Assembly (NCBI GenBank): GCA_963665975.1
Contig: OY762508.1
Coordinates: 2,781,456 to 2,845,455 of the forward strand
Direction: 5' to 3'
Source of the DNA: Rhodothermales bacterium
GTDB taxonomy: Bacteria > Bacteroidota > Rhodothermia > Rhodothermales > Bin80
Length of the DNA stretch: 64,000 bases
The translations under genes were made by a program, and so were the position numbers. Each line of letters opens with the position of its first letter. The first letter of the stretch is position 1. A model generated the notes under the pieces. That model saw nothing but the letters and a program-made list of their open reading frames with translations. It was not told the DNA's origin and made no database searches. Below, piece after piece: positions 11,715-55,925 of this stretch.

Positions 11715-13889
11715 CTACTTGACAAGAAGCATGCGACGCGACTGGACGAACGAATCGGCAGTTTCCAGGCGGTATAAATAGATGCCGGAGGCCAGTCTAC
11801 TCGCATCGAATCGAACCGTATATGTGCCCGTACTCATGGTTTTGTCGTCCAGCAGTGTAGCCACTGGCCGTCCGAGCACGTCAAAGATGCGGAGGGATAC
11901 GCGTTCCGTACCTGGAAGTGTAAACTCGATTGAGGTCACAGGATTGAACGGGTTGGGGTAATTCTGCTCCAGGACGATGTTTTCGGGCAGTTCCGCACTG
12001 GCTTCTGTAGAGATTGCAGTCCCGCGCCCAGCCATTGCCACGGTCATCCACTGGGCAGGTGTATTCCACCACTGACCGTCGGCGTTGCCTTTTATGGACC
12101 ACTGAATCTGCGTGTCGCGATTGGCTCCATCCCCGTCGTTAAGCGCGATGTTGAAAGGCATGTAGCGAATGTCTGTATCCGTGGGCGGATCCAGGACCGC
12201 ATCTTGCATGTCCGTATTTTGAATTGCATTGAGCGGAAACAGCGCCAGCACCTTCCAGCCGATGGCCGCGCCTCCTCCGTCGGTCAACACGTCATAGGCG
12301 GCGCCGCCACCCTGAGGCGCCCCATCTATGCTCCTGCCTACGTAGGCGTGGGCTGCGGTGCCAGCCTTCGTGCCATCTCCGTGTCCGGAAATCCGGAATT
12401 GGTAGTCGGCAAGCGCACCTCGCATCATATCCTGGTGCGAGCTGCCGCCGAATAGCGACCCGCCCTCTACGTCCTGCACGTCATAATTGCCCCAGCCGAA
12501 CTCAATACTGTCATGCTGCCAGGCGTCAGAAGGAGGCGTTGCGCTTGGCGCGAGCGTAACGACATCATCGGTCACTTCAGCGTAGATGAAAAGCTCATTG
12601 TCTGCTGTGTACCCGGCCCAAACTTTCGCCGAGAGATCGGTGTCGTTATCAGGCCCCGCAGCGGTATCGCCGAGTTTGGAATGGGTTGAGTCTACGGCGA
12701 AGGGCTGGAGCCAGTCAGGGAACCCTTCACCCGATACGGTACCGGCCGCCAGGTCATCAAATAGCTGGGTGCCTTCGGCATCAGTCAGCTCCGTGATAAA
12801 GGCCTGGTTGGGCAGGTCCGGATTGGCAACCGTTCCACTACTCATCGTTATGTCCGAGTTTTCCACGCCAAACTGACTGAGTGAAGTTACAGCATAGTGC
12901 AACGTAACCGGGGCCAGTGAAGGATGAATTACCTCGAACCTGTGTAGCACTTCAAACATGGCGGCGTCGGACGGCACGCTTGCCACCATTGACACGCCAG
13001 CATCGGAAACGTCGGTGAACGCATCCGGACTCATGTAGACGTTGTAGCCACCGAATTCCGGACTGTGAGTCCAGGAAATCCGGTTGCCCTCCATGGTACC
13101 CTCTAACGTTACCCCGCTCATCGCGCTGGCTGGATCATTGGCCACGGACAGGTCCAGACCCTCACCGCCAATGTAAACGTCGTCTACCCACACCGGGCCA
13201 CCCCCTGCGTTATTGTCCCAGAAGAAGCCGACATTCTGCACGTTTGTCCATTCGAATTCTTCCCAAAGGTTCGGATTATCCGCTGTATTCGGCCCCATTT
13301 CATCTGAGACTCCAACACCAAATCCTCCAGACGACCACGCGCCAGCGTAGACCCAATGCATAGCCAGGGAATCCAGAGTGCCTGCGGTTTTGCCATCTTC
13401 CAACTCCTGCCACGTGGCAGGAGGAAGCGGAATAGCAAGCGTGTGCCACTCGCCATTGCGCATTGCTTCCGGTACGCGCCATACCAATCGGAACGGCAGA
13501 TCCGCCGTACCGTCATTAGCGCCGCTATTATCCGTCTTATCCTCGAACATCAGTGCTACGTTCGGCTTGCCCTGATTTTCCGGATCGACAAGGAGCCGCA
13601 AGTGTAGCACATCGCCGTCCGTCCGGTTTTGGGTAAGATCGACGCCGACTGTGGCGTCAAAGCGAAATGCCTGAAATGACCAGTTTCCATAGTTGTATTG
13701 TACTACCTTATTCGTCGCATCCATTGGATCGTCAACCACGGTACCGTCGAAAGCAGGGACGAGCGTGTTGGTCCCGTTGACGAACAGGATGAAGTCATCG
13801 CCGATCGGCGGTCCTGCCTGGGCGCGAGCCTCAGAAGCCACCATCAGCAGCAAGGCGAGTGTAAGCAGACTGTAAGTGTTTCGCATCAT
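11715..13889 (-). CDS. Secreted T9SS cargo protein with CBM9/DOMON-like carbohydrate-binding region and Por C-terminal sorting domain
   Basis: Start at MMRNTYSLLTLALLLMVASEARAQ (signal peptide). The C-terminus is classic TIGR04183-like (LEQNYPNPFNPVTSIEFTLPGTERVSLRIFDVLGRPVATLL...SGIYLYRLETADSFVQSRRMLLVK). An internal WQHDSIEFGWGNYD segment is CBM9-like. Confidence 0.8.
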   Translation of the reverse strand: MMRNTYSLLTLALLLMVASEARAQAGPPIGDDFILFVNGTNTLVPAFDGTVVDDPMDATNKVVQYNYGNWSFQAFRFDATVGVDLTQNRTDGDVLHLRLLVDPENQGKPNVALMFEDKTDNSGANDGTADLPFRLVWRVPEAMRNGEWHTLAIPLPPATWQELEDGKTAGTLDSLAMHWVYAGAWSSGGFGVGVSDEMGPNTADNPNLWEEFEWTNVQNVGFFWDNNAGGGPVWVDDVYIGGEGLDLSVANDPASAMSGVTLEGTMEGNRISWTHSPEFGGYNVYMSPDAFTDVSDAGVSMVASVPSDAAMFEVLHRFEVIHPSLAPVTLHYAVTSLSQFGVENSDITMSSGTVANPDLPNQAFITELTDAEGTQLFDDLAAGTVSGEGFPDWLQPFAVDSTHSKLGDTAAGPDNDTDLSAKVWAGYTADNELFIYAEVTDDVVTLAPSATPPSDAWQHDSIEFGWGNYDVQDVEGGSLFGGSSHQDMMRGALADYQFRISGHGDGTKAGTAAHAYVGRSIDGAPQGGGAAYDVLTDGGGAAIGWKVLALFPLNAIQNTDMQDAVLDPPTDTDIRYMPFNIALNDGDGANRDTQIQWSIKGNADGQWWNTPAQWMTVAMAGRGTAISTEASAELPENIVLEQNYPNPFNPVTSIEFTLPGTERVSLRIFDVLGRPVATLLDDKTMSTGTYTVRFDASRLASGIYLYRLETADSFVQSRRMLLVK

Positions 13890-13929
13890 GGCGTTAGGTT
13901 TGTAAGGTTGTGTAATTGTGACCATGCCC

Positions 13930-13958
13930 ACGATAAGGAATTTTGAAAAGGTTTTCAA
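13930..13958 (-). promoter_or_regulatory. Candidate sigma70-type promoter of the T9SS-linked operon
   Basis: The minus strand reads TTGAAA-17 nt-TATCGT about 35 nt upstream of the ATG at 13889. This is motif inspection only. Confidence 0.25.
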
Positions 13959-14153
13959 CTCTATAATCACACTCAGTGTGGAGCGTTACGCAGATTTAGC
14001 GGTCGATTCGTGGATCTGAATCGAGAGTGGGCTCCCAATACACATAGGCATTGACTTTTGGCCAATATACTTGGTCGCAATTCTTCCTGACATTCCCGCT
14101 GACGCTACCGGGCATCGCACGCGCGTTCGAGACCTGTGATCACGGCGATGCGA

Positions 14154-14447
14154 TCATGTCCCGCTGCCTTCACGTGCTCCGTCAAGGCCTGCGTCACCGA
14201 GGTTATTAAGATTTATCGCGCTTGCACCCTCGGTGTTGACATGCGTATTGAGAATTACGACTGGCAGACGCTCATTGGTTATGGAGAACGTCTGCTTGGA
14301 CTCAAGTTCAGGCGCCATGATCTCCAGTCCGTCCACGCGAGGACCGATATTCTGCAAGGCCGTCCTAAATTCCAGTTCATGGTGGTGCGAAGCAAGCACC
14401 GTAAAAACTTGCTTGTGCACTTGAGCAGGTTCGTTTATGCCATTCAA
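14154..14447 (-). CDS. Hypothetical small protein (start uncertain)
   Basis: The frame is open from 14545 down to the stop at 14154 (…KALFEAVLPFITGEFFAELLNGINEPAQVHKQVFTVLASHHHELEFRTALQNIG…). The first canonical start is only the TTG at 14447. An AT-rich putative promoter region lies upstream. I recognise no family. Confidence 0.3.
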   Translation of the reverse strand: MNGINEPAQVHKQVFTVLASHHHELEFRTALQNIGPRVDGLEIMAPELESKQTFSITNERLPVVILNTHVNTEGASAINLNNLGDAGLDGAREGSGT

Positions 14448-15003
14448 GAGTTCTGCAAAGAACTCGCCTGTGATAAAGGGCAGAACGGCCTCAAATAGTG
14501 CTTTGTGTTTGAGCGGGCTGGGGGCGATGGGATTCAGCCTAATTTCAAGCTGTCTACGGCTACCATCACACGATCGCGCTTTTCTCCGCTAACCAGTGGG
14601 GGTATCACTAATAATAGGTAATATCTTGTAAATACATATATTATACTAGATCATCATGTCATGTGCGATACCACTCATCATAATCTACCGATAAGAGCGA
14701 TCGATAGCCTCTCGCAAGGTAGTCCACGAGTAATTGCCGGGTAAATTGCTCGTTATACTAGTCACGTTTCGGATGTCTCTGCTGGCGCTGCAGTGTTGCC
14801 AGTCCTTCAGTCGCTTATCCAGATCGCAGCAGTTGTGCTTGCCGCTCAATCAGAGCAGGAGCTGGCGTCTGCAGGCGATTTTGAGCCACTAGCCGTCGCC
14901 ATGCCTCTGGAGACAGTACACTTGACCAGGTGGAAGCGCGTGATGCTGGCTCTATTGTGATGCTGTCCAATGTGGTGAATGCTCGCTTTGATCAGCGACG
15001 CGT

Positions 15004-16212
15004 TCAAGGCTTGGGATTGTTGTCCGTGTTCTCAGCGTGCTGCAATGCCTCCTTGAGGGATATTATGGCCGGATGGTCGGGCCCATGCCGTGCGGCGTTT
15101 GCCCAGGCCTGAACGGCCTGCTGCATTCGATTGGTGTTCGCGTAGTGCCAGCCCAGGTTGACCCAAGTCACAACAAAGGATGAGTCTTGCGCCAACACGC
15201 GCCGGTATCGCGTCAAGGCTTCTGTTGTATCGCCTCGCTGCATGAACGCTGTTGCGATATTGTTCTGAAGTTCCAGATTGTGAGGTCGCAGGGCCAAGGC
15301 GACAAGGTACACGTTGAGTGCCTCGTCAAGTCGGCTGGCGCCGCGAAGCGCATTGGCGTAATTGAGTTGGTGTTGAAAATTGGTGGGTTGTTCGCGAGCG
15401 TTGACGCCGAGGCGCGCAATCTGCTGTTCTGCAGCCCGCACATCGTTGGCCCCGACAAGCACTTCTTGCGCGTCGCTCGCACGACCCATTCTCTGGAGCG
15501 CCTGCCCGAACGTGTAACGCGCGCTATAATCCCAGGGGCTAGACGCTGCGGCTTGATTCAGGTGAGGAACAGCCTCTTGAAAGCGTTGCAAGCGAAACAG
15601 CATCAGACCCACGAGATAGTGGTTGTGAGCACGGTCGGGTTGCAGGCCCACGGCGCGTTCGGCATGTTTCAGTGCATCCTCAAACCGACCCTCCTGTTCA
15701 TATAATTCTGCCAGGCTCGCATAGCCGGGTGCGTAGTTCTCATCCACAGCAACAGCTTGCAGATAGGCGGTGCGTGCACTGTCTGAGAGAGCCATTTGCT
15801 CAAAGGTGGCGCCCATAGCGTGCCAGGAATTCGGCCCGGGCCGAACTGCCGCTTCACGACGAAAATGCGCCAGGGCCGACAGGTATTGCTTCTGTGCAAA
15901 GAAGGCATTGCCCAGGTTATGATGTGCACCTGGATAGTTCGGTGTCCGTGCAAGGAGGATTTCGTAGGCATTTTGGGATTCGGCCATCTGCCCGAGTTCG
16001 AAGAACACGCGTCCTCGGATGAACTGGGCATCTGGCTGGTGCTTGTCCAGCGCGAGGGCGCTGTCAGCCAGCGATAGCGCCTCGTGATACGCACGCGCCT
16101 GCAGCGCTTTATTAGCCTGCATTGCAAAGTATTGTGCCTGCGGGTCCGGTGGCGGGGCACCGCAGGCAGCAATGAGCACGAGCAGGACGACAGCGATTCG
16201 AACAGACATCAT
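15004..16212 (-). CDS. Tetratricopeptide-repeat (TPR) lipoprotein
   Basis: Start at MMSVRIAVVLLVLIAACG (lipobox), followed by about 10 TPR-like repeats. The start overlaps the stop of the upstream CRTAC1 gene (ATGATG/TGA). Confidence 0.8.
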   Translation of the reverse strand: MMSVRIAVVLLVLIAACGAPPPDPQAQYFAMQANKALQARAYHEALSLADSALALDKHQPDAQFIRGRVFFELGQMAESQNAYEILLARTPNYPGAHHNLGNAFFAQKQYLSALAHFRREAAVRPGPNSWHAMGATFEQMALSDSARTAYLQAVAVDENYAPGYASLAELYEQEGRFEDALKHAERAVGLQPDRAHNHYLVGLMLFRLQRFQEAVPHLNQAAASSPWDYSARYTFGQALQRMGRASDAQEVLVGANDVRAAEQQIARLGVNAREQPTNFQHQLNYANALRGASRLDEALNVYLVALALRPHNLELQNNIATAFMQRGDTTEALTRYRRVLAQDSSFVVTWVNLGWHYANTNRMQQAVQAWANAARHGPDHPAIISLKEALQHAENTDNNPKP

Positions 16213-17870
16213 TCGGGTTCCACCAAATGCAACGTCTGGCCAGCCGCAATGCGCGCTCGCCGATCTGTATGCCCGCTGGGCCATACAACGATGACAGAAT
16301 CTGCGAATAGTGCGCCGCCCAAGCCAAATGTTAGCGTTCGCTCGGACTGTGATCCGTAACTCATGCCACTGCGAACGCGACGTTCCTGTTGCAGGGATCC
16401 TGTTTTGACAATTGCGCGTGCATCAACTGCGTTCCGGTTGCTGCGTGTGCCTGTGAGGTGCAGCCGGAGCCAAGAAGAGTTATGGGTCAGATCATTCCTG
16501 TAGAGGCGTGCCGGGCCGTTGTTTTCTGTGGCTAGCAGGTCCAAATCACCATCACCATCAACATCGGCTGACAACGCCCCACGGCCAACCAATGGTTTCG
16601 AGAACCCCAGAGTCGGGGATTGATCCTGGAAATTGCCGCTGCCGTCATTTATGAAAAGTTGCGGGTGCTGCCGGAAGGTGACCGCATCGCTGCGCTCACC
16701 GACAAACGGGTCTATATGCCCGTTGACAGCGAACAAGTCCAGGTCGCTGTCCAGATCTGCATCCAACAGCGTCACACCAAAGGTTAAGACCGGCAAACTG
16801 GCAGTGCCAATCCCGCTGGTCGCGGAGCGATCCTCGAACAATTCGGCAGACGTATAGCGGTAGAAAGCGATCATTTCGTTGGTGAAATTACCGACAAACA
16901 GGGATGTGTAGCCCGACGAATCTACGATGCCTGCTTCGATTCCCATACCGGCGCGGGCTCGACCGCGCTCATCCAACGCCATGCCGCTCACAAGTCCAGC
17001 TTCCTGAAAAGTCCCATCGCCCTGGTTCAAGTAGAGCTGGTCTGGATCGGTATCGTTTGCAAGTGCGAGATCCGGCCACCCGTCCTGGTTTACATCTAGT
17101 GCGATGGCGCCCAGCGTCTTGCCCGTACCATGGAGGCCCAATTCAACGGTGCGTTCGATGAATGTGCCGTCTCCTTCGTTATGATAAAAGCGGCCGGTTA
17201 CACCGGCGTATAACTGCGGTGTGCAGTAGCTCTTGGTGATTCCATCAGGTGAGCAGAACATATCTGTTTCGGGTGTCCACGTGACATATCCCCCCACATA
17301 CAAGTCCAACCAGCCATCCCGGTCTGCATCGAAAAACAGCGCTGCCACGTGCCACGCATCATGCTGCCCAAGACCCGCCGCGCGCGTTGCGTCACGAAAA
17401 ACACCTCCATCATTCACGAGTAGCACATCGTGACCGGTGGTGGTCAGGTAAAGATCGTCATCACCGTCATTGTCGACATCACCCGCAGTGATTCCCATGC
17501 CATAGCCCCTGATCTCGTTCAGACCACTTTCTCCAGTTACGTCGGTGAACTGCCCGGTGCCGTCATTTTGATAGAGCCACAGGGCGCGTACCGGATCGTC
17601 CGTCCACAAGCCGCCGCCCACAAGTACAATATCCGGAGCGCTGTCCTGGTTGTAGTCGATAAAAGCGGCGCCGCTTCCCATGATTTCGGGGAACCACCAG
17701 TCACCGCTCGCACCGTTTGTGTGTCGGAACGCTCCAAGGCCAGCTTCACGTGTGATCTCTTTGAATGTCCAGGAATGGTCCTCGGGCGTGCAGCCCGCTG
17801 TGACGGCGCAGAGCGTGCTCAACAGCAGGCAGCACCACGCATTCCTGTGTGTGTCCGGTGCTCGATTCAC
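16209..17870 (-). CDS. CRTAC1-family protein (FG-GAP/VCBS + ASPIC/UnbV), paralog of 836-2503
   Basis: 553 aa, collinear with 836-2503 and roughly half the residues identical by eye (FFDADRDGWLDLYVGGYV, SYCTPQLY, DQLYLNQGDGTF, GMSYGSQSE). Lipobox (VTAGCTP). Confidence 0.85.
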   Translation of the reverse strand: MNRAPDTHRNAWCCLLLSTLCAVTAGCTPEDHSWTFKEITREAGLGAFRHTNGASGDWWFPEIMGSGAAFIDYNQDSAPDIVLVGGGLWTDDPVRALWLYQNDGTGQFTDVTGESGLNEIRGYGMGITAGDVDNDGDDDLYLTTTGHDVLLVNDGGVFRDATRAAGLGQHDAWHVAALFFDADRDGWLDLYVGGYVTWTPETDMFCSPDGITKSYCTPQLYAGVTGRFYHNEGDGTFIERTVELGLHGTGKTLGAIALDVNQDGWPDLALANDTDPDQLYLNQGDGTFQEAGLVSGMALDERGRARAGMGIEAGIVDSSGYTSLFVGNFTNEMIAFYRYTSAELFEDRSATSGIGTASLPVLTFGVTLLDADLDSDLDLFAVNGHIDPFVGERSDAVTFRQHPQLFINDGSGNFQDQSPTLGFSKPLVGRGALSADVDGDGDLDLLATENNGPARLYRNDLTHNSSWLRLHLTGTRSNRNAVDARAIVKTGSLQQERRVRSGMSYGSQSERTLTFGLGGALFADSVIVVWPSGHTDRRARIAAGQTLHLVEPE

Positions 17871-18428
17871 GCTGGTCTACTTCGATTTCGGCATCTTGAA
17901 CAGGCAAATGCCAGTCCTCCGTCTACAGTCAAGGAGGTGAGCTGTGTGTTGCGCAACATGCATCGATGGCGTCTTGCGCTCCTGTAAATTAAGATCGGCA
18001 AAGGATGGCGACACAGATGATATCAGGCTGCATCCCGTATCCATATCTTCTTCTTCGGAACCGATTATTTTCTGTGAACCTGAGTGATGATGCCTGGTTC
18101 GGACGCTTCCGTAGGAGCGTCCAGGTTGTGCATGCACTGAGCCGACAATGTTGGCTACTTCTACCCCCTTGCTACTCCTGCAGGTCGCTTCGTGCGCAGC
18201 CCCGATTTTGAATTGATCGATACAGGGGGTCCAACCCTAACGGAAGGTGATGGTCTTTTCCTATAAGCGCGATTCTTTTCAGCTTATTTGGGGCACAATC
18301 ACACTAGTCTATATTCGTTCGATTTAGTGTATCTTGCCGGCAGTTGAGGCAGAATGGACCTACGCCGTATCCGACCCCATCGCCCCGAGCGCTACTTGAC
18401 ACTGTCCGGACATACAACACGTTCAGTT

Positions 18429-18818
18429 ATGCAATCACTCACGCCGACCATCATCGTCGAAGCCATCGAACCGGTACTGCCCTTCTGGGTAGACCGCCTC
18501 GGATTTGCCGTCACCGATAAAGTCAGCGAAGGGGATCGCCTCGGTTTCGTCATTTTGAAGAACGGTCGGGTCGAGGTCATGTATCAGACCCTGGAGAGCA
18601 TCCGGAACGATGTGCCGGAACTGGCCGATATGCCGTTGCAGGGAAGCGCGTTATTCGTGAAGGTGGGCACGCTCGAGAAACTCGACGCCGTAGACGAGGC
18701 GCTGTCCGGTGTGGATCGGGTCGTGCCCCGCAGAAGGACCTTCTATGGAGCCGATGAGATTATCGTTCGCGACCCGGCCGGGAACGTGGTGACGTTCGCC
18801 TACTTTGCCAAGTCGTAA
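18429..18818 (+). CDS. VOC-family (glyoxalase/bleomycin-resistance fold) protein
   Basis: MQSLTPTIIVEAIEPVLPFWVDRLGF...GADEIIVRDPAGNVVTFA is typical of small VOC proteins. I prefer the internal ATG at 18429 over the ORF-track start at 18354. Confidence 0.7.
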   Translation: MQSLTPTIIVEAIEPVLPFWVDRLGFAVTDKVSEGDRLGFVILKNGRVEVMYQTLESIRNDVPELADMPLQGSALFVKVGTLEKLDAVDEALSGVDRVVPRRRTFYGADEIIVRDPAGNVVTFAYFAKS

Positions 18819-18995
18819 AGCGCGCACTTCCTTTCACTCGACGCTCTGCCGGATCCTGCAAATGTAATCGGAGCGACCAGGTGAATCTTAGTCCACGTTC
18901 GCTCTCTGTTGGAATGTGACAAGCGGTCTTACATTCTTTGCTGTCACGATACATCGCAATAGCTGCCCTACCAATTTTCTTCACCTCGGTGAATG

Positions 18996-19068
<73 letters not shown>

Positions 19069-19285
19069 GATGTGCGCTCCCGTGAAACAACTAAGGCGCC
19101 TTCTGGATTGACGGGCGCGATATGTCAAACACAGTTCCACGAGCATTTCACGAGCAGGTTCCGAACGAAGAAGCCACAGAATGGTTACTATGCGCCCTGT
19201 GGCAGCAAGTGACGACTATTCGTTTGCACCAGGCGCGGGTCTAACGCGCCGTGTTCCAAACCATCGCTTACGTTCAATATTTGGG

Positions 19286-21763
19286 ATGAGCACCTCACGC
19301 GGGCAACGCTCCATACAAGTATTAAAGTTTGGCGGCACGTCTGTAGGGACGGTAGAGCGTATTCAGCGCGTTGTGGGACTTGTCCGCAGAGTGGATGGCG
19401 GCGTGCAACGCGTGGTAGTGGTTTCGGCCCTCGGAGGCGTGACCGATGAACTGCTCCGATCAATAGACGAGGCACTCGAACGGACCGGACACCATCGGCA
19501 AGTTCTGCAAGGGCTGCGTGACCGCCACCGCGAAGCTGCCGAACGCCTGGCAATTCCCAAAGAAAGACCGGTCCTGAATGGTGTGCTCGAAGCATGCTGG
19601 GAAGAGGTCGAAAACCTTCTGGAGGGCATCTACCTCCTGGGAGAATGTACGCCTCGCACGCGCGATGCCGTGCTTAGCATCGGCGAGCGGGCATCGGCAC
19701 CCCTGGTGGCGGCGGCATTCAACATGGCCGGCGAGGATGCTGTTGCACTAGATGCACGCACCCTGATCCGAACGGACAATACGTATGGCGAGGCCAGCGT
19801 CGAGTTCACCGAGTCCGGAAATCTGATCGCCAAGACGTTTGAGGATTTTTCACCAGATCAGATTGCCGTAGTCACGGGCTTTATCGCATCCACCGACAAT
19901 GGGGAAACGACGACGCTCGGCCGCTCGGGCAGCGATTATACCGCAACGATTCTGGGTCGTGCACTGTTGGCGGAACGGGTCGTCATATGGACGGATGTAG
20001 ACGGCGTACTGTCGGCGGACCCGAAGGACGTGCCAGAGGCTTTCCCGCTCTCGCGGCTTAGCTACTCTGAAGCCGCAGAAATGGCCTATTTCGGAGCCAG
20101 GGTGCTCCATCCGCGCACTATGCGTCCGGTGCGAGACCAGGGCATCCCCCTGCTCATCAAGAATTCGCTGAATCCCGAGGCCGCAGGAACGCTGATTTCC
20201 AGAGAGTCGCACGCAGTCGATCTGCGAGTCAAGGCGATATCCACTATTCGAGGAGTAGCCGTTGTGATGCTGGAAGGTGGCGGGATGCTCGGCGTGCCGG
20301 GCATCGCCGCACGTGTGTTTGGGTCCCTGGCAGACAAGCAGATCAACGTGCTGATGATCGCCCAGGCTTCCAGCGAGCACAGCATCTGCCTGGTCGTTCG
20401 TGAGCAAGACGCCGCCGCGGCCGTGGATGCACTCAAGGCTACGTTTGTCACAGAGCTGGGTCGAGGAGACGTAACCAGAATCTATGCGGTGTTCGCTTGT
20501 GCCGTTATTTCGGCCGTCGGCGATCAGATGCGCCACTCCCCGGGACTCGCAGGCCGCATGTTCGCTACGCTCGGACGCAGTCGAGTCAACGTATTGTCTA
20601 TCGCACAGGGTGCTGCCGAGACCAATATTTCGGCCGTCGTCCGTGACGACGAGGTGCGCCTCGCGGTTCGCGCCCTGCATGAAGCCTTCCCCCTGGCACG
20701 TCTCAGGGCGCATGTTTGCCTGCTGGGATCGGGGCGCGTGAGCCGGCAGCTACTCGGTATCATCGCCTCGCAGGCATCAGACTTGCTGGACCGGGTGAGC
20801 CTCAATTTGCGGATCATTGGACTAGCAAATTCCAGCAAGATGTGTTGGGACACGGATGGAATTGCGCCAGAGCGCGTCATGGAGGAATTGGAGGATGGGG
20901 TGTCAACAAATCTGGATTGGCTGATTGAGCAGCTTGGGGCAAGCAGACTGGAACGCGTGATACTTGTAGATGCTACGGCCTCAGAGCGTGTCGCTGGGCT
21001 GTATCCCAAATTCCTGGAACTTGGCATCGGTGTGGTAACTGCAAGCAAACTCGCCAACTCCGCCGACATGGGCTACTACCGGCGCCTTCAGAAAGCAGCG
21101 CGCCGGCGGGAAGTCGCTTACCGCTATGAAACGACCGTGGGCGCCGGACTACCCGTGTTGTCCACAATTCGAGACCTGGTGCGGTCTGGAGACCGCATTC
21201 GCAGTGTAGAGGGCGTATTGTCGGGTACGCTGGGCTATATTTTCAACGAGATCGAAACGGGACGACCATTTTCAGAAGTCATCATGGAGGCACATGCCCT
21301 CGGCTATACGGAGCCGGATCCATGGATCGACCTGGCGGGCGAAGATGTAGCACGCAAACTGTTGATCCTAGTGCGTGAAATGGGCGTCGAGGCAGAGCGG
21401 GAAGATGTAGACGTTGAGTCGCTTATTCCGGCGAACCTTCCTCACGGAACGATGGAAGAATTCCGCGCATCGCTGCCCAGCATGGACGCGTACTGGTCAA
21501 AGCGCGTCGAGGCTGCCATACGCGAAGGGAAAAGCCTTCGGTACGTTGCCACATTTGATGGCGAGCGGTTAAGTGTAAAGGTTCGAGCTTTGAATGCAGA
21601 TTCTCCGTTTTCCCGGCTTCACGGAACAGAAAACGCGGTCATCATTCGTACGGATCGCTATGACTCCATGCCCATGGTAGTCCGGGGACCGGGAGCTGGT
21701 CCCGATGTCACCGCAGCAGGACTTCTGGCGGATATCATTAAGGCGGCCGAATTGATGCCGTAA
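19286..21763 (+). CDS. thrA: Bifunctional aspartate kinase / homoserine dehydrogenase
   Basis: N-terminal aspartokinase (IQVLKFGGTSVGTVERIQRV...), ACT region, and C-terminal homoserine dehydrogenase (ETTVGAGLPVLSTIRDL...GPGAGPDVTAAGLLADI). The start is set at MSTSRGQRS, upstream of the KFGGTS motif. Confidence 0.9.
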   Translation: MSTSRGQRSIQVLKFGGTSVGTVERIQRVVGLVRRVDGGVQRVVVVSALGGVTDELLRSIDEALERTGHHRQVLQGLRDRHREAAERLAIPKERPVLNGVLEACWEEVENLLEGIYLLGECTPRTRDAVLSIGERASAPLVAAAFNMAGEDAVALDARTLIRTDNTYGEASVEFTESGNLIAKTFEDFSPDQIAVVTGFIASTDNGETTTLGRSGSDYTATILGRALLAERVVIWTDVDGVLSADPKDVPEAFPLSRLSYSEAAEMAYFGARVLHPRTMRPVRDQGIPLLIKNSLNPEAAGTLISRESHAVDLRVKAISTIRGVAVVMLEGGGMLGVPGIAARVFGSLADKQINVLMIAQASSEHSICLVVREQDAAAAVDALKATFVTELGRGDVTRIYAVFACAVISAVGDQMRHSPGLAGRMFATLGRSRVNVLSIAQGAAETNISAVVRDDEVRLAVRALHEAFPLARLRAHVCLLGSGRVSRQLLGIIASQASDLLDRVSLNLRIIGLANSSKMCWDTDGIAPERVMEELEDGVSTNLDWLIEQLGASRLERVILVDATASERVAGLYPKFLELGIGVVTASKLANSADMGYYRRLQKAARRREVAYRYETTVGAGLPVLSTIRDLVRSGDRIRSVEGVLSGTLGYIFNEIETGRPFSEVIMEAHALGYTEPDPWIDLAGEDVARKLLILVREMGVEAEREDVDVESLIPANLPHGTMEEFRASLPSMDAYWSKRVEAAIREGKSLRYVATFDGERLSVKVRALNADSPFSRLHGTENAVIIRTDRYDSMPMVVRGPGAGPDVTAAGLLADIIKAAELMP

Positions 21764-23492: not shown

Positions 23493-23846
23493 ATGACAAG
23501 CGCAGTAAACCTTTCCGAGTCCCTCGCCCGCTTAGATGAATTCTGGAGCCCGCGGGTAGTCGGCGCCCTGAATGGGCAGCATGTCAAGCTGGCGAAGGTA
23601 TTCGGGGAATTTGTCTGGCACCGGCACGAGGAGGAAGACGAGCTCTTCCTGGTCGTAAAGGGACGCCTGCTGATCCGGCTTAAGGAAGGCGAGGTCACCG
23701 TAAAAGAGGGTGAATTCTTTATTGTCCCGCGTGGGACAGATCACCAACCTGTGGCAGAGGAGGAGGCACACATCCTGTTGTTCGAGCCGGAAACCACGCG
23801 CAGGTTGGGTGACAAGGAGGGCGTGGCGGATCCTGTGCGCGACTAG
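23493..23846 (+). CDS. Cupin-domain protein
   Basis: 117 aa with a single cupin barrel (WHRHEEEDELFLVVKGRLLIRL...EFFIVPRGTDHQPVAEEEAHILLFEP). Confidence 0.75.
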   Translation: MTSAVNLSESLARLDEFWSPRVVGALNGQHVKLAKVFGEFVWHRHEEEDELFLVVKGRLLIRLKEGEVTVKEGEFFIVPRGTDHQPVAEEEAHILLFEPETTRRLGDKEGVADPVRD

Positions 23847-23967
23847 AGACCGCCGGGTCTAAGAACTTCCAGTTCGACCGTCACGCGCGCGTAGCTGCCG
23901 AAGACGCCATGTGCGCCGCGCACGGGCTCCAGCGGATTGGGGATTTCGCCAGGCGCGAACGTAGAGC
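23843..23967 (-). pseudogene. Orphan 3'-end fragment of the DUF4249 gene (displaced copy)
   Basis: Encodes ...STFAPGEIPNPLEPVRGAHGVFGSYARVTVELEVLRPGGL*. This duplicates the last ~40 codons of the intact gene at 26830-27738, but nothing homologous lies upstream of it. Confidence 0.85.
23855..23967. repeat. 113-bp direct repeat, copy 1 (att-like boundary of island)
   Basis: gggtctaagaacttccagTtcgaccgtcacgcgcgcgtagc...gcgaacgtagagc is identical to 26842-26954 except for one t/c difference. Confidence 0.9.
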
Positions 23968-24125
23968 GTCCTGTGCATTGCTTGCAACGGTGCACGACTG
24001 GAGTGCGAAATAACGATCCCTCTGACCTGGAATCAACTCTTTTCACACGCTATCGATCTGGCGTGCTATCGTCTTTGTTCTTGCCAGCCACACCATCTCG
24101 GGCTTTTGCCCTCGACTTCCGCCAC

Positions 24126-24369
24126 TTATGGTGATTCCCAGGTTTTTCTCACGAAATCGCGCCCGTTCGGTGTTAGACGATAGAGCTGGTTCCTGCTGCG
24201 TGGTTTGTCCGGGATGGTCATTTCGATCAGCCTCGCTTCGAGGGCAGGTCGAAGGAAGATACGCGGTTGGAAAGTGGTACCGGTGAGCCCGTCCTAAAGC
24301 AGCTTGCAATTGGGTGCGGCCCATTTCGCCATTCAGGGCCACCACCAGTCGTTTGACTTGCTCGGTAGG
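24126..24369 (-). pseudogene. Decayed second C-terminal winged-helix module of the AlbA_2 protein
   Basis: In frame behind the TAA at 24370-24372: [38 protein letters not shown], then a frameshift. DNA at 24130-24360 is a close paralog of 24700-24915. A 4-bp tandem duplication (CTTC CTTC on the coding strand) breaks the frame. Repairing it restores ...[34 protein letters not shown]. Confidence 0.75.
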
Positions 24370-26112
24370 TTACTTGGCACCTTGCTTGGTGACTTGGTCG
24401 GTAGCTTGGTCGGTAGCTTGGTCGGTAGCTTGGTCGGTAGCTTGGTCGGTAGCTTGGTCGGTAGCTTGGTCGGTAGCTTGGTCGGTAGCTTGGTCGGTAG
24501 CTTGGTCGGTAACTTGGTCGGTAACTTGGTCGGTAGCTTGGTCGGTAGCTTGGTCGGTAGCTTGGTCGGTAGCTTGGTCGGTAGCTTGGTCGGTAACTTG
24601 GTCGGTAACTTGGTCGGTAACTTGTCTCGTGGCTTGCCCGGTTTCTTCCTCGGCAGAGTGATCGTTCCTTACCCGCGCCCCCATCTCGGGGTACGGTCGG
24701 AAGAGGACCGTCACGAATTCGTGTCCTTCCGGTGTCAGACGATAGCGCTGATTCTTGCTGCGTGGTTTGTCCGGGATGGTCATTTCGATCAGTCCGGCTT
24801 CGAGGGCAGGTCGAAGATACGCGGTAGTGAAGTGGTACCGGTGAGCCAGTCCTAAGGCAGATTGCAACTGGGCGCGGCCCATTTCGCCATTCAGGGCCAC
24901 CACCAGTCGTTCGACTTGCGCGGTAACTTGTTCGGTATCGTGCCCGGGTTCTTCCCTAGCAAATTGATCATGCCTTGCTTGGGTCCTCACCTCGGGATTC
25001 GGTCGGAAAATGACCGTCACAAATTCGTCGGTCACAAATTCTGGTTCCGGGCACCGCAACCCCCTGGACTCGTCGCGGATGCGCCGGATGCCGGTTCCCG
25101 CCTTCTCGATGAAGCCGATGCGGTGGAGCAGATCCGCAATCAGTGCGTTCCGTCGAACGCTGCGACGACCAAGATCGGCAAGCGACAAACCTCGGGGTAG
25201 GCCACCTGGGCTTACCACTTCGACCCGGTCGGCGTAGATCTCGACGAAGATGTTGGCACCGGCAAAGAACCAGTCCCGATGCATGACGGCGTTGGTGATC
25301 GCTTCGCGCAGTGCGTTGATTGGGTACTCGGGGATATCCTGCCGCTGGAGCCCCTCAATGCGGTAGGCCGTACGAGTATTGCGCTCGACGAATCTCAGCG
25401 CATCCTCGATGTCGGCCACGACGCCACCGTCGAAGTCCTTGCGGTCCAGGATGTGAACCTTGTCGGTACCCCTCGCCAGCAGGCAGGTGATGTAGGCCTC
25501 GGGAAAGAAATGGCGCACGTTCTTGGCGAAAAACAGCACGCCAGCGTTGCGGAAGAGCAGCGTTCTATTTACTCGCTCAGCAACCTCGATGTTGACGAGC
25601 ACGTCCTCGACCAGAGGCCAGCCGGAAATTCCAGAAAGACGAAGCCATGCATCGAACTTCTCGTGGTCAAAATCCTCCGGGTACTTGAACTCGACGCAGG
25701 GTGCCAGATCGAAGCGGACGGCGCCCTCCGCCCGAAAGAAATCGCGAATTTCCTCGCGGGTCAGCTTTTGCGTCACCGCGCCCTGCCGCCAAAAGAAGCC
25801 GTCGCTGCACTGCACGGGTTTGGAATTGCTCTCCCTGACGTGGACGGCAAACACTTGTCCGACCGGTTCCGTCCGCACCCGGACCGGTGGATCGCAGTTG
25901 CGTGCAATGTCCTGGATGCGGGCACGTAGAGTATTGGTATCCCGAACACCGGTCACGGCGCCATCGTCCCCCACACCTAGAAGAATCTTGCCGCCGATGG
26001 TGTTCGCTAGTGCCACAAGCTCTCGCGCGAACGACGACGAGAGGCGTTCCTTGAATTCGAGGGTCGTCCCTTCCCCCTCCTGGATGAGAATGTCTAGATC
26101 ATCGGGTGTCAT
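24370..26112 (-). CDS. AlbA_2 (Schlafen-like divergent AAA) + HATPase_c_4 + winged-helix protein with a TDQ[A/V] repeat tail
   Basis: Start at [56 protein letters not shown] (AlbA_2). The middle region [17 protein letters not shown]...[14 protein letters not shown]...[14 protein letters not shown] is HATPase_c_4-like. Next comes [61 protein letters not shown] (wHTH), followed by about 20 tetrapeptide repeats. Confidence 0.8.
24388..24627. repeat. 12-bp tandem repeat array, about 20 units (GGTAGCTTGGTC / GGTAACTTGGTC), in-frame coding
   Basis: Read directly: one GGTGAC unit, 9 GGTAGC, 2 GGTAAC, 5 GGTAGC, 2 GGTAAC, and one degenerate unit. On the coding (minus) strand this translates to (TDQA/TDQV)n. 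Confidence 0.95.
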
Positions 26113-26213
26113 GCGGATTCCTCGGATCGCCGGGTGATGCGAGAAGGATGGCGTGTCTTCTGAATGTAGCGCTTGATGAGGAATTCGCGTACCCAATCAT
26201 TTTCGTAACCGTC

Positions 26214-26445
26214 TCACTCGTTGAGAGTCGTAGATTCCAATGGTCTGCTCTCCGTCTGATCATCGGCGCTGTTCTGCACCCACGCGTCTACTTGCGAGGA
26301 TCAGAGCCGAAACATCTGTCCTACGCGATGTGCCGACAGGCCCTTCGTGTCGACCCATCGATTGATCGTGTCTTTGATACCTGCAGGTGGTCAGTTCCGT
26401 CCGCGATGTCAACCCAAGGTTCTTCAGATGCCAGATTCTACTGCC
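26214..26445 (-). pseudogene. Decayed excisionase-type HTH (HTH_17-like) gene upstream of the AlbA_2 gene
   Basis: My translation gives ...EEPWVDIADGTDHLQVSK | (frameshift) | DTINRWVDTKGLSAHRVGQMFRL*SSQVDAWVQNSADD. The pattern matches xLTvxEaAxyLgVSkxTiyRWvxxGxlpaxrvGxxwRFxxxevDaWl. There is no start codon, and there is one frameshift and one in-frame TGA. Confidence 0.5.
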
Positions 26446-26829
26446 TCCGTCTTCGGGTAGGCACGCCTACCGTAGATTGTACAACATCATCACCGGATCA
26501 TAAGCATCATTCAAAGTAAGGAGCACAAAAAGCACACAAATCCATCGTGTCCACCAAATCGCGCACGAAATGGGGGATATGCTGTTTCGGCATTTACTCC
26601 CGAAGCGACGAGGGCAACTATGAATCCGGAATACAAGTGTGGCCCGTGGTGTGCATAACAGCTGTACACGGTTCTAAGGATGCAGACGAGAGGACAAGAA
26701 CATCATGTGGACACCACTAATATCCGACATATAGACACTAACGGCACCCGTAGAACCCGGCCAACTGTACTTCGCACCCAAACGCACCACGATATAGTCA
26801 GCAAGGGCCGCTTCTACGGCGCAGGCCCC

Positions 26830-27738
26830 TTAGGAGCCGCTGGGTCTAAGAACTTCCAGCTCGACCGTCACGCGCGCGTAGCTGCCGAAGACGCCATGTG
26901 CGCCGCGCACGGGCTCCAGCGGATTGGGGATTTCGCCAGGCGCGAACGTAGAGCCACCCTGTTGTACGCTCTGCGACCGGAAGAAGTCGTATAGGTTGTC
27001 GTCCAGAGCGTTGATGCTAATCCGGTTGGGACCAAAGAAAACGGTTCCAATCCACGGGTAGCGTATGGTCAGCGTACCATCTGAATTGACGGCATAGTTA
27101 TTCTCATTAAGAAGGGGGGAGCCGCGCACACGCAGGTCTTCGATGGTGTCCACGCCTGCCGGCATCGCATCAAGGATAGAGGCGCCAATCGGTGTCAACT
27201 GATCTTCTCGCGGATCCAGGGATTCCGTGACAAAGATGTAGTAGTTCTGGCTGCGCCCAGGCACGCTGCTGCGCGTAACCGTGATTTCGAGTTGTTCGTT
27301 GGTTTGGTACACCGCGCGTTGCAGTGTAGCGTTGACCACGCCGAAGGTGTCAGGCACAACGGTAGTACCGGTAATGGAGGCGCCCGTCTCGGGAATAAGC
27401 ACTTCGAGTCTGTAGGTCTCCAGGGGCTGTGCCCGAGCCGCTGGACTGGCAGGCAGGTAGATGCCTGGCTGCTCCGGGTCTTCACGATACTCCTCCATGG
27501 ATCCATCGGCTTTCGTAGGATGCAGCGCTACGGTAGCGTCGCGGACGGCGAGCCTTGAAAAATCGTACGATTCGGTTACGCCGGTCGTTCGACTTAGCCG
27601 AATTGGAGGCAGTGGCTCATCGGAGACGAGAATGGCTTCAACGACGTACTCGGGTGGTAATCCACCAGGGTCTGTGCTGTCGCAGGCCGCAACGAGGCCT
27701 AACAATGTCAACACCAGGATATTCGATGGTCGTCTCAT
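26830..27738 (-). CDS. DUF4249-family lipoprotein (usual partner of CarboxypepD_reg TonB-dependent barrels)
   Basis: Lipobox (LLGLVAACDS). The C-terminal motif GEIPNPLEPVRGAHGVFGSYARVTVELEV is typical of DUF4249. It lies directly downstream of the barrel gene at 27751-30018. Confidence 0.7.
   Translation of the reverse strand: MRRPSNILVLTLLGLVAACDSTDPGGLPPEYVVEAILVSDEPLPPIRLSRTTGVTESYDFSRLAVRDATVALHPTKADGSMEEYREDPEQPGIYLPASPAARAQPLETYRLEVLIPETGASITGTTVVPDTFGVVNATLQRAVYQTNEQLEITVTRSSVPGRSQNYYIFVTESLDPREDQLTPIGASILDAMPAGVDTIEDLRVRGSPLLNENNYAVNSDGTLTIRYPWIGTVFFGPNRISINALDDNLYDFFRSQSVQQGGSTFAPGEIPNPLEPVRGAHGVFGSYARVTVELEVLRPSGS
26842..26954. repeat. 113-bp direct repeat, copy 2 (inside the intact DUF4249 gene 3' end)
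   Basis: See 23855-23967. Confidence 0.9.
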
Positions 27739-27750
27739 GTGGCAATGACC

Positions 27751-30018
27751 TTAGAATTCCAGCGTAAGCGACAGATTCGGCAACGGGATTGGAATCTGCG
27801 GAATGCTGGTTTTTTTGATCGTCTGGTCCGCTTCAAACCGGTGTAGTATGAACCACGTGTTGGTCCGCGCATAGGCGTTAATCACCTGGATCTGCAATTC
27901 GTAATCGGCGAAGCCGAAGAATCGCCCGCGCTTGGCGGCGCCGACATCCAACCGATGATAGGCGGGCAGCCGCGCCTGATTCAGACCGGGAGACAACAGG
28001 ACATTGGTCGAGCGTTCACCGGTAAGCGGTTCCGTTCCAAGTAGCTTGTACTGGGACTGGGGATCCGTGAACGCCTGCCCCGACGCATAGGAGAATACTC
28101 CCGTAAGCCGCCAGGATTTGCCGAGATTGAAATTGACGACAGCGCTGATATCGTGCAGGCGATCATGTTTGGGCGGATAATTACGCGGCTCGCCGTCGAT
28201 ACCAAGGTTTAGATTTGGGAATTGGCGTTGCGTCCTGCCATACGTATAGGCCAAGAAGCCGGTCGTGCGGCCATGATCTTTTTCCACCTGGATTTCAATT
28301 CCCTTTGCGGAGCCGCGACCGATATGGAAATACTGGAAATACTGGAGCCCGGCAGGATCGGGGAGAAACGGATCGAGCACGAAAAGGTCGCGCATGGTGC
28401 GAAAGTAGAACTCCGTATCCAGATGCAAGCCACTGAATAAGATGGTCTTTACGCCGAGGATGAATTGGTCGCCATAGGCGGGATTGACACGGTCAGCGCT
28501 CGTAAGCCAGAAATCGAAGCCGGAAAAGGCTTCATTGGTTATCAAGGTCTGGAACTGATAGTAGCGGCCATAGCTGCCCTGCAGTCGGACACTTTCCGAC
28601 AGGCGGCGTTCGACAGACAGGCGTGGCGCCACACGGAGATGACGGCCATTGGCGAAGTAAGTCGCCCGAAGACCGCCCTGAAGCATCCAGAGGGGCGATG
28701 GGCGGTACGTTTCTTGAGCATAGAGGGAGGCGTATGCCGATCGGATGCGCGGACTGAACGTGTCTATGCCATCGAAAGAGGACTTGAAGGGGAAGTCGAA
28801 GAATCCCGCCCAAAAGCCTCCCTCCAACTGGTGGCGTTCGCTGACGTAAAACTCCAGGTCACCCTTAACGGAGGTGTCGTAAATCCGGCTGTCCTGCCTG
28901 ATTTCCGTGCCGCCGAGCAGGATGCGTGGGGTGCTGAAGTAACGGCTTGTAGTGAGCGTGAAGTTCGAGAAAAGCCGGTCGGAAAACAGGTGCGTCCAAT
29001 TCGCGCTTAGCGTGCGATTACCATACCGCAGGTCCAGGCGTGCGTCTTCCAGGAAAGAAATATCCAGGGCGTCGGTGCCCGTGTACACCGACAATGAGAT
29101 CCTGTCATCCGGGGTCGCATCGAAGTTGACCTTGCCATTGATGTCCAAAAAATGAAAGGCATCCGGAATGCCATCTATATCCTTGAGAATGGCCAGCAAA
29201 GGCTCCAGCGTAGAGCGCCGCACGGCGAGCATCCACGACCCACGCGCATAGGGGCCTTCGATGATCGCCCTGGAGGCCAACAGACCCAGCGTTCCCGCTG
29301 CCTTGAACTCACGGCGATTACCGTCCTTGTTATACACGTCAAGCACGGCTCCTATACGCCCTCCATAGGAAGCGGGGAAGCCTCCCTTGTAGAGCCGCAC
29401 ATCCTTTATGGCATCCGGGTTGAATGTGGAGAAGAATCCGAAGACGTGAGTCGGATTGTAAACCGTTGTCCGATCAAGCAGAATCAGCGTCTGGCCCGGA
29501 TCGCCGCCTCGTATGTAGAGCCCACTGGAATAATCGGAAGCAGCCTTGACACCCGGCAAGAGTTGCAAACTTCGGAATACATCCGCCTCGAGAATCGACG
29601 GCAACTGCTTGATGGTGGCGACCTTCATCTGGCCAACACCAATGTTGCGCGCCTCCTCTTCGGCGGCGCGATTGGCAGACACCACGACTTCGCCTGCCAG
29701 CAAATCTTGCGGGACAAGCTCAATATCGAGTCGCCGGCTTTCGCCATCGGCAAGGGTTACCTCCAACTCCTGGGTCTGGAAGCCGATATAGGAGCCCACG
29801 ATCGTGTACATACCCGGCGCAAGTCCGGTCAGTGTATAGTATCCGGCCGTGTTGGTGGCTGCACCGATTGTGGTGCCCGCAACCGTGACATTCGCCAACA
29901 GCAATGTTTCCCCCGAGGAAGCATCGGTTACGAAGCCACTAATGGATGTTGTCTGTTGCGCGACAGCGGCCGAGACTCCACAGAACATCAACACCAATGC
30001 CGCAATGGAGCGTCGCAT
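27751..30018 (-). CDS. TonB-dependent-receptor-like barrel with CarboxypepD_reg domain
   Basis: QQTTSISGFVTDASSGETLLLANVTVAGTTIGAATNTAGYYTLTGLAPGMYTIVGSYIGF (CarboxypepD_reg), then a plug region (LPGVKAASDYSSGLYIRGGDPGQTLILLD) and a terminal LSLTLEF. Confidence 0.85.
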   Translation of the reverse strand: MRRSIAALVLMFCGVSAAVAQQTTSISGFVTDASSGETLLLANVTVAGTTIGAATNTAGYYTLTGLAPGMYTIVGSYIGFQTQELEVTLADGESRRLDIELVPQDLLAGEVVVSANRAAEEEARNIGVGQMKVATIKQLPSILEADVFRSLQLLPGVKAASDYSSGLYIRGGDPGQTLILLDRTTVYNPTHVFGFFSTFNPDAIKDVRLYKGGFPASYGGRIGAVLDVYNKDGNRREFKAAGTLGLLASRAIIEGPYARGSWMLAVRRSTLEPLLAILKDIDGIPDAFHFLDINGKVNFDATPDDRISLSVYTGTDALDISFLEDARLDLRYGNRTLSANWTHLFSDRLFSNFTLTTSRYFSTPRILLGGTEIRQDSRIYDTSVKGDLEFYVSERHQLEGGFWAGFFDFPFKSSFDGIDTFSPRIRSAYASLYAQETYRPSPLWMLQGGLRATYFANGRHLRVAPRLSVERRLSESVRLQGSYGRYYQFQTLITNEAFSGFDFWLTSADRVNPAYGDQFILGVKTILFSGLHLDTEFYFRTMRDLFVLDPFLPDPAGLQYFQYFHIGRGSAKGIEIQVEKDHGRTTGFLAYTYGRTQRQFPNLNLGIDGEPRNYPPKHDRLHDISAVVNFNLGKSWRLTGVFSYASGQAFTDPQSQYKLLGTEPLTGERSTNVLLSPGLNQARLPAYHRLDVGAAKRGRFFGFADYELQIQVINAYARTNTWFILHRFEADQTIKKTSIPQIPIPLPNLSLTLEF

Positions 30019-55130: not shown

Positions 55131-55925
55131 TCAGGACCCAGCGCTCTGGGCGTCATCCTGGACCTGTTGGCGCCGCTTGGAAGCCTCCAGCCGATAGCTC
55201 GGCACATTCAGCTCCAGTATCACGCTGTGATGCACGAGCCGGTCTATGGCCGCAGCCGTGGTCATCGGATCCTTGAAGATGCGCTCCCACTGACTGAAGG
55301 CCAAATTGCTCGTAAGAAGCACGCTGCCACGCTCGTAGCGCTGCGACAAGAGCAGAAACAGCACCTCCATCTCCTCCCGAGTGTGCTGCACGTAGCCGAT
55401 GTCGTCGATAATGAGCGCCTCAAAGCGAGGTAATCGCTTGAGGAGCGTGGGCAGACGCAGCTGTTGTTTGGCCCATAGCAGATCCTGTACCAGGGTGCTG
55501 CAATTGTAGAAGAGCACGCGCCGCCGCTGAAAGATCAACTCCCGACCCAGTGCACACACCAGGTGCGTCTTGCCGCTGCCGGGAGGACCGAAGACCAGGA
55601 CATTCTCCTTGCGGTCCAGAAAGCCTCCCTCCAATAGCACACGCAGATGGTGGTCTAACCGCAAGGGCAACCGGCCCCGATCGAATGTGTCCAACGTCTT
55701 CTCCAGCGGCAGCCGCGACTCGCGCAGCCAACGCTGAATGCGATTGCTGTGACGCTCCTGTTGCTCCTCTTCTATGAGCTCCAACAGGAAACGCTCGAAG
55801 CTCAAGGCCTCCCTGCGGGCCATATCGGCCTTCTCCCGCCAGCACGCCCGGATCGCCGGCATACGGAGCTCCTTGAGCCCTGCCTGCAGCGCCCGCTCCA
55901 GTTCTGTTGACGTCAGCGTCTTCAT
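55131..55925 (-). CDS. istB: IS21 helper ATPase IstB
   Basis: Walker A GPPGSGKTHL and Walker B ALIIDDIGY, with typical length. Confidence 0.92.
   Translation of the reverse strand: MKTLTSTELERALQAGLKELRMPAIRACWREKADMARREALSFERFLLELIEEEQQERHSNRIQRWLRESRLPLEKTLDTFDRGRLPLRLDHHLRVLLEGGFLDRKENVLVFGPPGSGKTHLVCALGRELIFQRRRVLFYNCSTLVQDLLWAKQQLRLPTLLKRLPRFEALIIDDIGYVQHTREEMEVLFLLLSQRYERGSVLLTSNLAFSQWERIFKDPMTTAAAIDRLVHHSVILELNVPSYRLEASKRRQQVQDDAQSAGS

Follow-up and report, generated by a model that had tools for sequence, protein, structure and literature searches.

A CIME-Like Island Without an Integrase at the 3′ End of a DUF4249 Gene in a Rhodothermales Bacterium

Introduction

Integrative elements of bacteria are known to target the 3′ ends of protein-coding genes, the flanking direct repeat then including the end of the gene (PMC5704250). 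Integrative and conjugative elements (ICEs), as well as integrative and mobilizable elements (IMEs), can decay into cis-mobilizable elements (CIMEs), which keep both attachment sites, attL and attR, and are devoid of the integration and transfer genes (PMC5704250). The present analysis concerns a 2,987-bp insertion at the 3′ end of a housekeeping-type gene of the DUF4249 family in a Rhodothermales bacterium, located in a stretch of 64,000 nucleotides of contig OY762508.1 (positions 2,781,456 to 2,845,455; assembly GCA_963665975.1), which was analyzed as a whole and is referred to as the window. Classic CIMEs flank the 3′ end of the fda gene in Streptococcus thermophilus, beside ICESt1 and ICESt3. 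Streptomyces SLP1 and Haemophilus phage HP1, unlike the island described here, encode their own integrases and target tRNA genes.

The insertion resembles CIMEs in that direct repeats delimit it, in that one of them provides a protein-coding gene, left undisrupted, with its 3′ end, and in being small, limited to cargo and polymorphic among strains. Both repeats are retained (112 of 113 positions identical), and neither a recombinase nor a transfer gene is present between them. It is a CIME-like integrase-less island, of a known kind, which carries a module associated with defence islands. It differs from described CIMEs in its repeats, which at 113 nt are much longer than usual, and in its host, which belongs to the Rhodothermales and not to the Firmicutes; moreover, a related integrase-bearing element is known neither for the site nor for the species, and descent from an ICE or IME is assumed. 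With the IMEs, ICEs and prophages that encode tyrosine integrases and enter housekeeping protein genes at the 3′ end (PMC5704250), it shares the target at a protein-gene 3′ end, the replacement of that end, the direct repeats and the existence of an empty site, whereas it has no integrase gene and no assignable excisionase. The locus, for which the empty site is available, is a clean natural case of one strain gaining an accessory gene of putative defence type. The 3′ end of the DUF4249 gene was replaced without inactivation of the gene, and DUF4249 hence joins the protein-coding genes used as integration sites.

Direct Repeats and the Empty Site

A repeat search over the window detected a direct repeat of 118 nt (23850–23967 and 26837–26954) with 98% identity. 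Its core of 113 nt (23855–23967 and 26842–26954) has a single mismatch, T at 23873 vs. C at 26860, as had been described in an earlier note made on this DNA from the sequence alone. When up to three mismatches were tolerated, exactly two copies of the core were found in the window, and none in 100 shuffled sequences, which served as the chance level. The target gene DUF4249 (26830..27738, minus strand; 302 aa; PF14054, E=1.9e-17), the reading frame of which the insert restores, ends in the right, attR-like copy (26842..26954, minus strand). This copy, bearing the island allele at 26860, supplies the final 38 codons of the live gene and is followed by four further codons (26830..26841, minus strand; AGC GGC TCC TAA, SGS*), the protein ending in PSGS*. 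The left, attL-like copy (23855..23967, minus strand) contains orphan DUF4249 codons 264–301 and is 100% identical to the allele of the related contig L102. It begins 8 nt past the stop codon of a Cupin_2 gene, which forms the chromosomal left flank (23493..23846, plus strand; PF07883, E=4e-13; protein 100% identical to that of contig L001), and runs in frame to PGGL* through the orphaned original tail of the gene (23843..23854, minus strand; GGC GGT CTC TAG, GGL*), which is identical to the end of the gene in every empty-site contig. The division of roles between the copies, one closing the live gene and the other orphaned behind the cupin gene, was likewise anticipated correctly in the earlier note. 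A database protein, P0245, matches the DUF4249 protein of the window except for the final residues (PGGL vs. PSGS), and the 90% identity cluster of the window protein contains five other members, which all end in PGGL, PGGS or PPGL.

The related contigs comprised seven conspecific ones from different samples (L001, L002 and L102–L106), with flanks 98.5–99.9% identical to the window, and two from sister lineages (L101 and L003), with about 88–89% nucleotide identity. An empty site with the cupin gene convergent on DUF4249, which the earlier note had proposed to look for, is present in 9/9 of these contigs: the cupin gene comes directly after DUF4249, and one repeat copy and no insert are found (the L002 contig breaks off within the cupin gene, so the cupin was not called there). 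In the uninterrupted locus, the stop codons of the two convergent genes overlap by 4 nt (window 23843–23846; L001:10906–10909). The shared overlap is the palindrome CTAG, which gives a TAG stop on each strand, and the insertion parts the two genes. The DUF4249 gene at the empty site ends in PGGL*, as predicted from the orphan copy. In the closest contig, L102, the one flank was 99.13% identical along 10,046 nt and the other 99.89% along 4,732 nt, both in gap-free alignments, and joining the right flank of the window, the left repeat and the left flank rebuilds the L102 sequence exactly. Since the empty site exists in related strains, the 2,987 bp represent an insertion. The insert between the repeats is strain-specific, being absent from every other strain found. 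To judge by homologues of its DUF4249 protein, the window belongs to an uncultured lineage of the Rhodothermales. The host is a marine bacterium that is probably host-associated.

The earlier note had named a dispersed repeat family as a case that would speak against its reading; the repeat belongs to no such family and occurs twice in the window and once in each of 89 related loci bearing DUF4249. Self-comparison of 107 sequences (1.69 Mb) revealed no additional duplication of the repeat. A further copy of the gene end within 10 kb was absent from all of the 80 GTDB loci that contain DUF4249 homologues, and the cupin gene adjoins DUF4249 only in the nearest relatives. In two metagenome-assembled genomes of more distant Rhodothermales, DUF4249 and the cupin gene are separated by about 3 kb of ordinary genes (L012:1082–4234, with pilin-like open reading frames (ORFs); L016:2924–6065, with a histidine kinase) and no repeats are present; the DUF4249–cupin intergenic position is thus also variable over longer evolutionary distances.

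Origin of the Two Repeat Copies and Geometry of the Insertion

The two copies differ in origin. The left copy is the chromosomal allele, with 100% identity to L102, and passes into the chromosomal tail GGCGGTCTCTAG. In the right copy, the position 19 nt before the end is occupied by a private base, G in gene sense; this copy continues into AGCGGCTCCTAA and is then followed by unrelated DNA. The insert tail shows homology to the end of the gene and has its stop at the same codon, matching the host at 7/12 positions and the sister lineage L101 at 9/12. The insert tail is therefore closer to the DUF4249 end of L101 than to that of the host. Within the 113-nt core, the copies show 0–1 differences from the allele of their own species, whereas the sister lineages differ at 5–9 positions. 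As the right copy combines a private single-nucleotide polymorphism (SNP) with a diverged homologous tail, the insert must have carried its own DUF4249 3′ end of ∼125 nt. As the earlier note had claimed, the live DUF4249 gene now ends in insert-derived sequence; this sequence, with one SNP and the PSGS*/TAA tail, differs from all the empty sites.

A single reciprocal crossover took place within the 94 perfectly identical bases at 26861–26954, on the 5′ side (gene sense) of the mismatch. The geometry is that of Campbell-type integration, in which the attachment site of the element mimics and restores the target gene's end. The homology fades gradually on the 3′ side and ends abruptly on the 5′ side, beyond which identity is at the chance level. 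Such one-sided homology is as expected for attP sites, the attachment sites of elements, that restore their target gene. A longer, ancient homology upstream of the repeat was considered and rejected, since the tblastn extension to residue 237 had chance-level identity.

On these grounds, we consider it probable that the locus is a Campbell-type mini-island whose integrase was lost or acted in trans, that is, a CIME-like remnant or satellite at a protein-gene 3′ end that restores the gene. A circular element would have carried a ∼125-bp copy of the DUF4249 3′ end, made up of the 113 nt and a 12-nt tail that is diverged and has a stop codon of its own, and one reciprocal crossover would have joined this copy with the chromosomal 3′ end of DUF4249. 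The live gene would thereby have received its PSGS* end from the element, and the original PGGL* end would have been orphaned beside the cupin gene. The cargo is a module of an HTH_17 gene followed by a gene for an AlbA_2/HATPase_c_4/winged helix-turn-helix (wHTH) ATPase, and this module is now partly decayed. The crossover was most likely made by a site-specific integrase of the tyrosine type, which would since have been deleted from the element or would have acted in trans.

The origin of the copies also bears on transposition. If a transposition-like event had produced the repeats as a long target-site duplication, both copies would be chromosomal, which the non-chromosomal SNP and tail of the right copy contradict; in addition, the island has neither terminal inverted repeats nor a transposase. 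The window does hold mobile elements, namely an IS21 element, two IS110 copies and a group II intron, which could favor such an event, but the duplications generated by these families are no longer than a few base pairs. An assembly chimera is likewise disfavored, since the 14.8 kb of flanks aligned with L102 contain substitutions but not a single gap, which speaks for good assembly quality, and a chimera would yield no switch of alleles within the repeat. Transposition or chimerism together can be given next to no credence.

It is also conceivable that linear DNA taken up by transformation was inserted by homology-facilitated illegitimate recombination, possibly on a sister chromosome, with duplication of the 113 bp; one end would have been anchored in the homology to the DUF4249 3′ end and the other joined illegitimately. 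The abrupt passage into unrelated DNA at the 5′ edge of the repeat and the unique sequence of the left arm of the island are in agreement with this. However, a direct duplication in place of a deletion requires an unusual topology, and a donor with the module natively downstream of DUF4249 is predicted, whereas 9/9 related contigs are empty. We regard this route as highly improbable.

Island Content and the HTH_17–AlbA_2 Module

Pfam scans covered the AlbA_2 ORF, all ORF pieces in 26197–26841 and the ORFs of the left arm, with the arms scanned at E≤1. The only intact gene of the island encodes a 581-aa AlbA_2 (Schlafen-like)/HATPase_c_4/wHTH (Fic-like_C) protein (24370..26115, minus strand), with the domains PF04326 (3e-18), PF13749 (6e-22) and PF21247 (1e-26) in this order. 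The start, set by comparison with homologues, is ATG at 26115 and not the upstream TTG at 26196. The earlier note had called this gene intact, which it is not in full, since a second, C-terminal linker+wHTH module has been lost. This module persists as a pseudogenized segment (24152..24369, minus strand), recognized by a weak Fic-like_C hit and from homologues with two modules. It lies in frame behind the stop at 24370–24372 and has a frameshift by a 4-nt indel near 24254, deduced from the spacing of the internal duplications of the region (558 vs. 562). Near its end, the AlbA_2 gene contains a 12-nt tandem repeat (24393..24624, minus strand; 19.3 copies, 98% identity) encoding an (A/V)TDQ linker. 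The window protein has 21 occurrences of the motif and homologues have about 3–6, and to judge by these counts the linker looks like a recent expansion that is possibly hypervariable.

Upstream of the AlbA_2 gene lies an HTH_17 pseudogene (26214..26446, minus strand), which has no start codon, a frameshift at ∼26372–26375 and an in-frame stop at 26301–26303. The reconstructed peptide matches PF12728 with E=6.1e-8 (33.3 bits vs. a cut-off of 27). The rest of the island consists of arms. The left arm (23968..24070, minus strand) is unique non-coding DNA with no homologue and no terminal inverted repeat. It is followed by the conserved 3′ flank of the AlbA_2 module (24071..24150, minus strand), which extends ∼65–80 nt past the ancestral stop TGA at 24149–24151. 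The right arm (26447..26829, without assigned strand) comprises 383 nt of non-coding DNA with a G+C content of ∼0.50 and showed no homologue, integrase remnant or Rfam match. The interior of the island includes about 0.5 kb of non-coding DNA; no Rfam family and no notable promoter or terminator signal was found in the island.

The AlbA_2 protein has 1,663 homologues below E=1e-3 in many phyla, the best of them with 74–78% identity, and many have a duplicated linker+wHTH architecture. Seven distinct genomic contexts of the homologues were looked at. The gene stands alone between housekeeping genes in L004–L006 and L091 and lies in defence islands or prophage regions in L007, L008, L089 and L090, where its neighbors are large helicases, Eco57I/MmeI-type methyltransferases, GmrSD, TIR and CRISPR genes. 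In L007, L008 and L089, an ORF for a 75-aa HTH_17 protein is placed 100–170 nt upstream of AlbA_2. The HTH_17 pseudogene of the window shares 54% protein identity with that of L089 and 71% nucleotide identity over 175 nt (L089:7661–7835), and the AlbA_2 proteins of the two loci are 78% identical. DNA similarity of 76–78% extends across the whole AlbA_2 gene and on for ∼65–80 nt past its stop. Over 1.1–1.4 kb of the segment 24711–26130, the AlbA_2 gene of the window showed 73–78% nucleotide identity to L004–L008 and L089–L091, and the named homologues are from Caldilineaceae and Pseudomonadota. Such nucleotide identity across unrelated contigs points to a wide and fairly recent horizontal spread.

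The 3′ flank has the core AAACC..GGAAT.GCAATAAGTGGCGAA, common to loci from other phyla and with other gene neighborhoods, and is ∼74% conserved in L089:9408–9487, L007:9411–9490, L005:9690–9760, L006:9714–9785 and L091:9690–9760. No conserved secondary structure was found for it across the compared loci; it could be an operator, an element of the 3′ untranslated region or a recombination site.

The order HTH_17–AlbA_2 thus represents a conserved two-gene module that is transferred horizontally. The modules of L007, L008 and L089 are comparable to that of the island in the gene pair, its order and spacing, the AlbA_2 similarity of 76–78% and the 3′ flank. They differ in that their HTH_17 is intact, while in the island the pair stands alone, HTH_17 is decayed and the second wHTH has been lost. 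The helicase that follows AlbA_2 in L089 and L007 has left no remnant in the left arm of the island, and the solo AlbA_2 genes of L004 and L005 are not flanked by long repeats. Because HTH_17 is consistently paired with AlbA_2 in non-integrative contexts, it is cargo and no sign of an excision module. The earlier note had described a decayed excisionase-like HTH; the HTH_17 domain is real, but a role in excision is not supported. The intact HTH_17 of L089 also matches TIGR01764 (‘excise’), and the HTH_17 family does include excisionases. A ‘decayed excisionase’ beside cargo can therefore mislead, as here, where it is part of a widely transferred HTH_17–AlbA_2 module.

Assignment to the MADS defence system was considered and rejected: the HTH_17 of L089 scored 57.5 bits against MAD1, under the cut-off of 80, and the AlbA_2 protein has no NCBIfam match. 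In PADLOC, the AlbA_2 protein gave only partial matches, to profiles associated with prokaryotic Argonaute (pAgo).

Search for an Integrase and Homologous Recombination as a Possible Rival

Several observations weigh against the mini-island reading in which an integrase made the crossover. Neither an integrase gene nor a fragment or remnant of one was found in the island (ORF pieces, and arms at E≤1), which bears out the statement of the earlier note that none remains, and the 50 long ORFs of the window yielded no tyrosine or serine recombinase. The proposal in that note of a site-specific element that replaces the gene end is upheld as to the insertion and the replaced end, and not as to a site-specific integrase. 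HTH_17, the sole candidate for a gene of a recombination module, turned out to be cargo. Pfam scans of the island revealed no transfer genes and no relaxase. The intact integrase-bearing relatives that the earlier note had suggested looking for did not emerge from searches of a protein database, GTDB, IMG/VR, JGI metagenomes, plasmids and phages. Specifically, scans of IMG/VR with the DUF4249 C-terminus and with AlbA_2 gave no close relative, the attR junction and the repeat core, each used as an exact pattern against JGI metagenomes, gave 0 matches, and the complete island had no blastn match among plasmids and phages. Identity to the best AlbA_2 homologue reaches only 78%, none of the examined homologues is located at a DUF4249 gene, and the 80 GTDB loci showed no further element at the 3′ end of DUF4249. 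Finally, the cargo pseudogenes have at least five lesions vs. 1 nt between the repeats, which suggests that the element was already degenerate, and possibly integrase-less, at the time of integration.

A long near-perfect repeat would equally result from RecA-mediated recombination. A serious rival, although we think it rather unlikely, is that host homologous recombination through RecA made the same Campbell-type insertion from a circular DNA with ∼113–125 bp of DUF4249 3′ sequence. The circle might, e.g., have been excised or assembled in a related strain, it would have recombined at any point of the homology, and repeated cycles or gene conversion would have given the host-identical core while the tail stayed diverged. 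The absence of a recombinase or remnant in cis, in the island and in the scans of the 64-kb window, is in agreement with this, as are the long block of near-perfect identity with its sharp fall to ∼60% in the tail and the fact that the core matches the allele of its own species while the tail resembles the sister lineage. The five or more lesions of the cargo, compared with one base between the repeats, likewise make this rival a serious one. On the other hand, 113 bp is short for an efficient RecA crossover. The tail of the insert copy, which is in frame and has its stop at the identical codon, looks selected for restoration of the gene, and the one-sided homology with its abrupt 5′ edge fits a fixed crossover site. 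Long blocks of identity are also present in elements that encode an integrase, about 112 bp in SLP1 and about 182 bp in phage HP1. Integration of a circular element by a lost or unlinked integrase is retained as the favored explanation, with the RecA crossover as a rival of weight.

Other classes of mobile DNA were also examined. The island has no terminal inverted repeats and no transposase, as a transposon or insertion sequence (IS) would, and it does not resemble an integron cassette, as the repeat folds no more stably than shuffled sequences (z = +1.1 and −0.1) and intI is absent from the window.

A Parallel McrBC Island in Another Strain

The conspecific contig L103 (ENA ERZ23492223, scaffold_10) contains a 4,314-bp segment within 15600–20126 that encodes only McrB and McrC. 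It is flanked by perfect direct repeats of 213 bp (L103:15600–15812 and 19914–20126), each including a complete tRNA-Ala(GGC) gene with 84 nt upstream and 55 nt downstream, and no integrase was found in it. The corresponding empty site in the window is at 18940–19152, with a single tRNA-Ala at 18995–19068, 4.8 kb from the DUF4249 site. This island is similar to the AlbA_2 island in belonging to the same species, in carrying a single defence system and no integrase, and in having long repeats and non-coding arms of a few hundred base pairs. It is unlike it in its 213-bp repeats, which include a whole tRNA gene and sequence upstream of it, and in its arms, which are unrelated to those of the AlbA_2 island; only two non-collinear 10-mers are common to the arms of both, which is not convincing. 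Long repeats at kilobase spacing were found to be rare in the 1.69 Mb of compared loci.

The L103 repeats bear on two of the rivals. Covering a whole tRNA-Ala gene and 84 nt upstream of it, these perfect repeats exceed what an integrase needs to restore a tRNA gene, which favors the RecA crossover. For insertion of linear DNA by illegitimate recombination, they would demand a second such rare accident. It is a doubtful, though possible, proposition that single defence systems in this species travel recurrently as integrase-less mini-islands bounded by near-perfect copies of their target of 113–213 bp, the two islands then not being independent relics of decayed elements. In that event, circular cassettes might be inserted by host homologous recombination, or an unlinked recombinase might be guided by the target copies. 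Two cases are too few for a general mechanism, although they make an integrase-independent or in-trans mode conceivable. A common integrase-independent mechanism for the two islands would, if true, bear on the assembly of defence islands at hotspots.

Other Features of the Window

A TonB-dependent receptor gene assigned by Pfam (27751..30018, minus strand) lies upstream of DUF4249, with which it forms an operon-like pair, and this order is constant in the related loci. The mobile elements of the window are all located at 55–63 kb, in a cluster at 55131–63070. An IS21 pair is formed by IstB (55131–55925) and an IstA-like rve/Mu-transposase_C protein (55922–57472). The two IS110-type copies are marked by the repeats 57499–57696/61029–61226 and 60226–61016/62280–63070, with an intact transposase at 61648–62718, and the first copy is apparently interrupted by the group II intron, whose reverse transcriptase/maturase gene is at 58721–60061. 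A 1,125-aa ORF at 5580–8957 has no Pfam match, and a region of 4.4 kb at 11806–16209 contains only short ORFs of 96–172 aa, likewise with no Pfam match.

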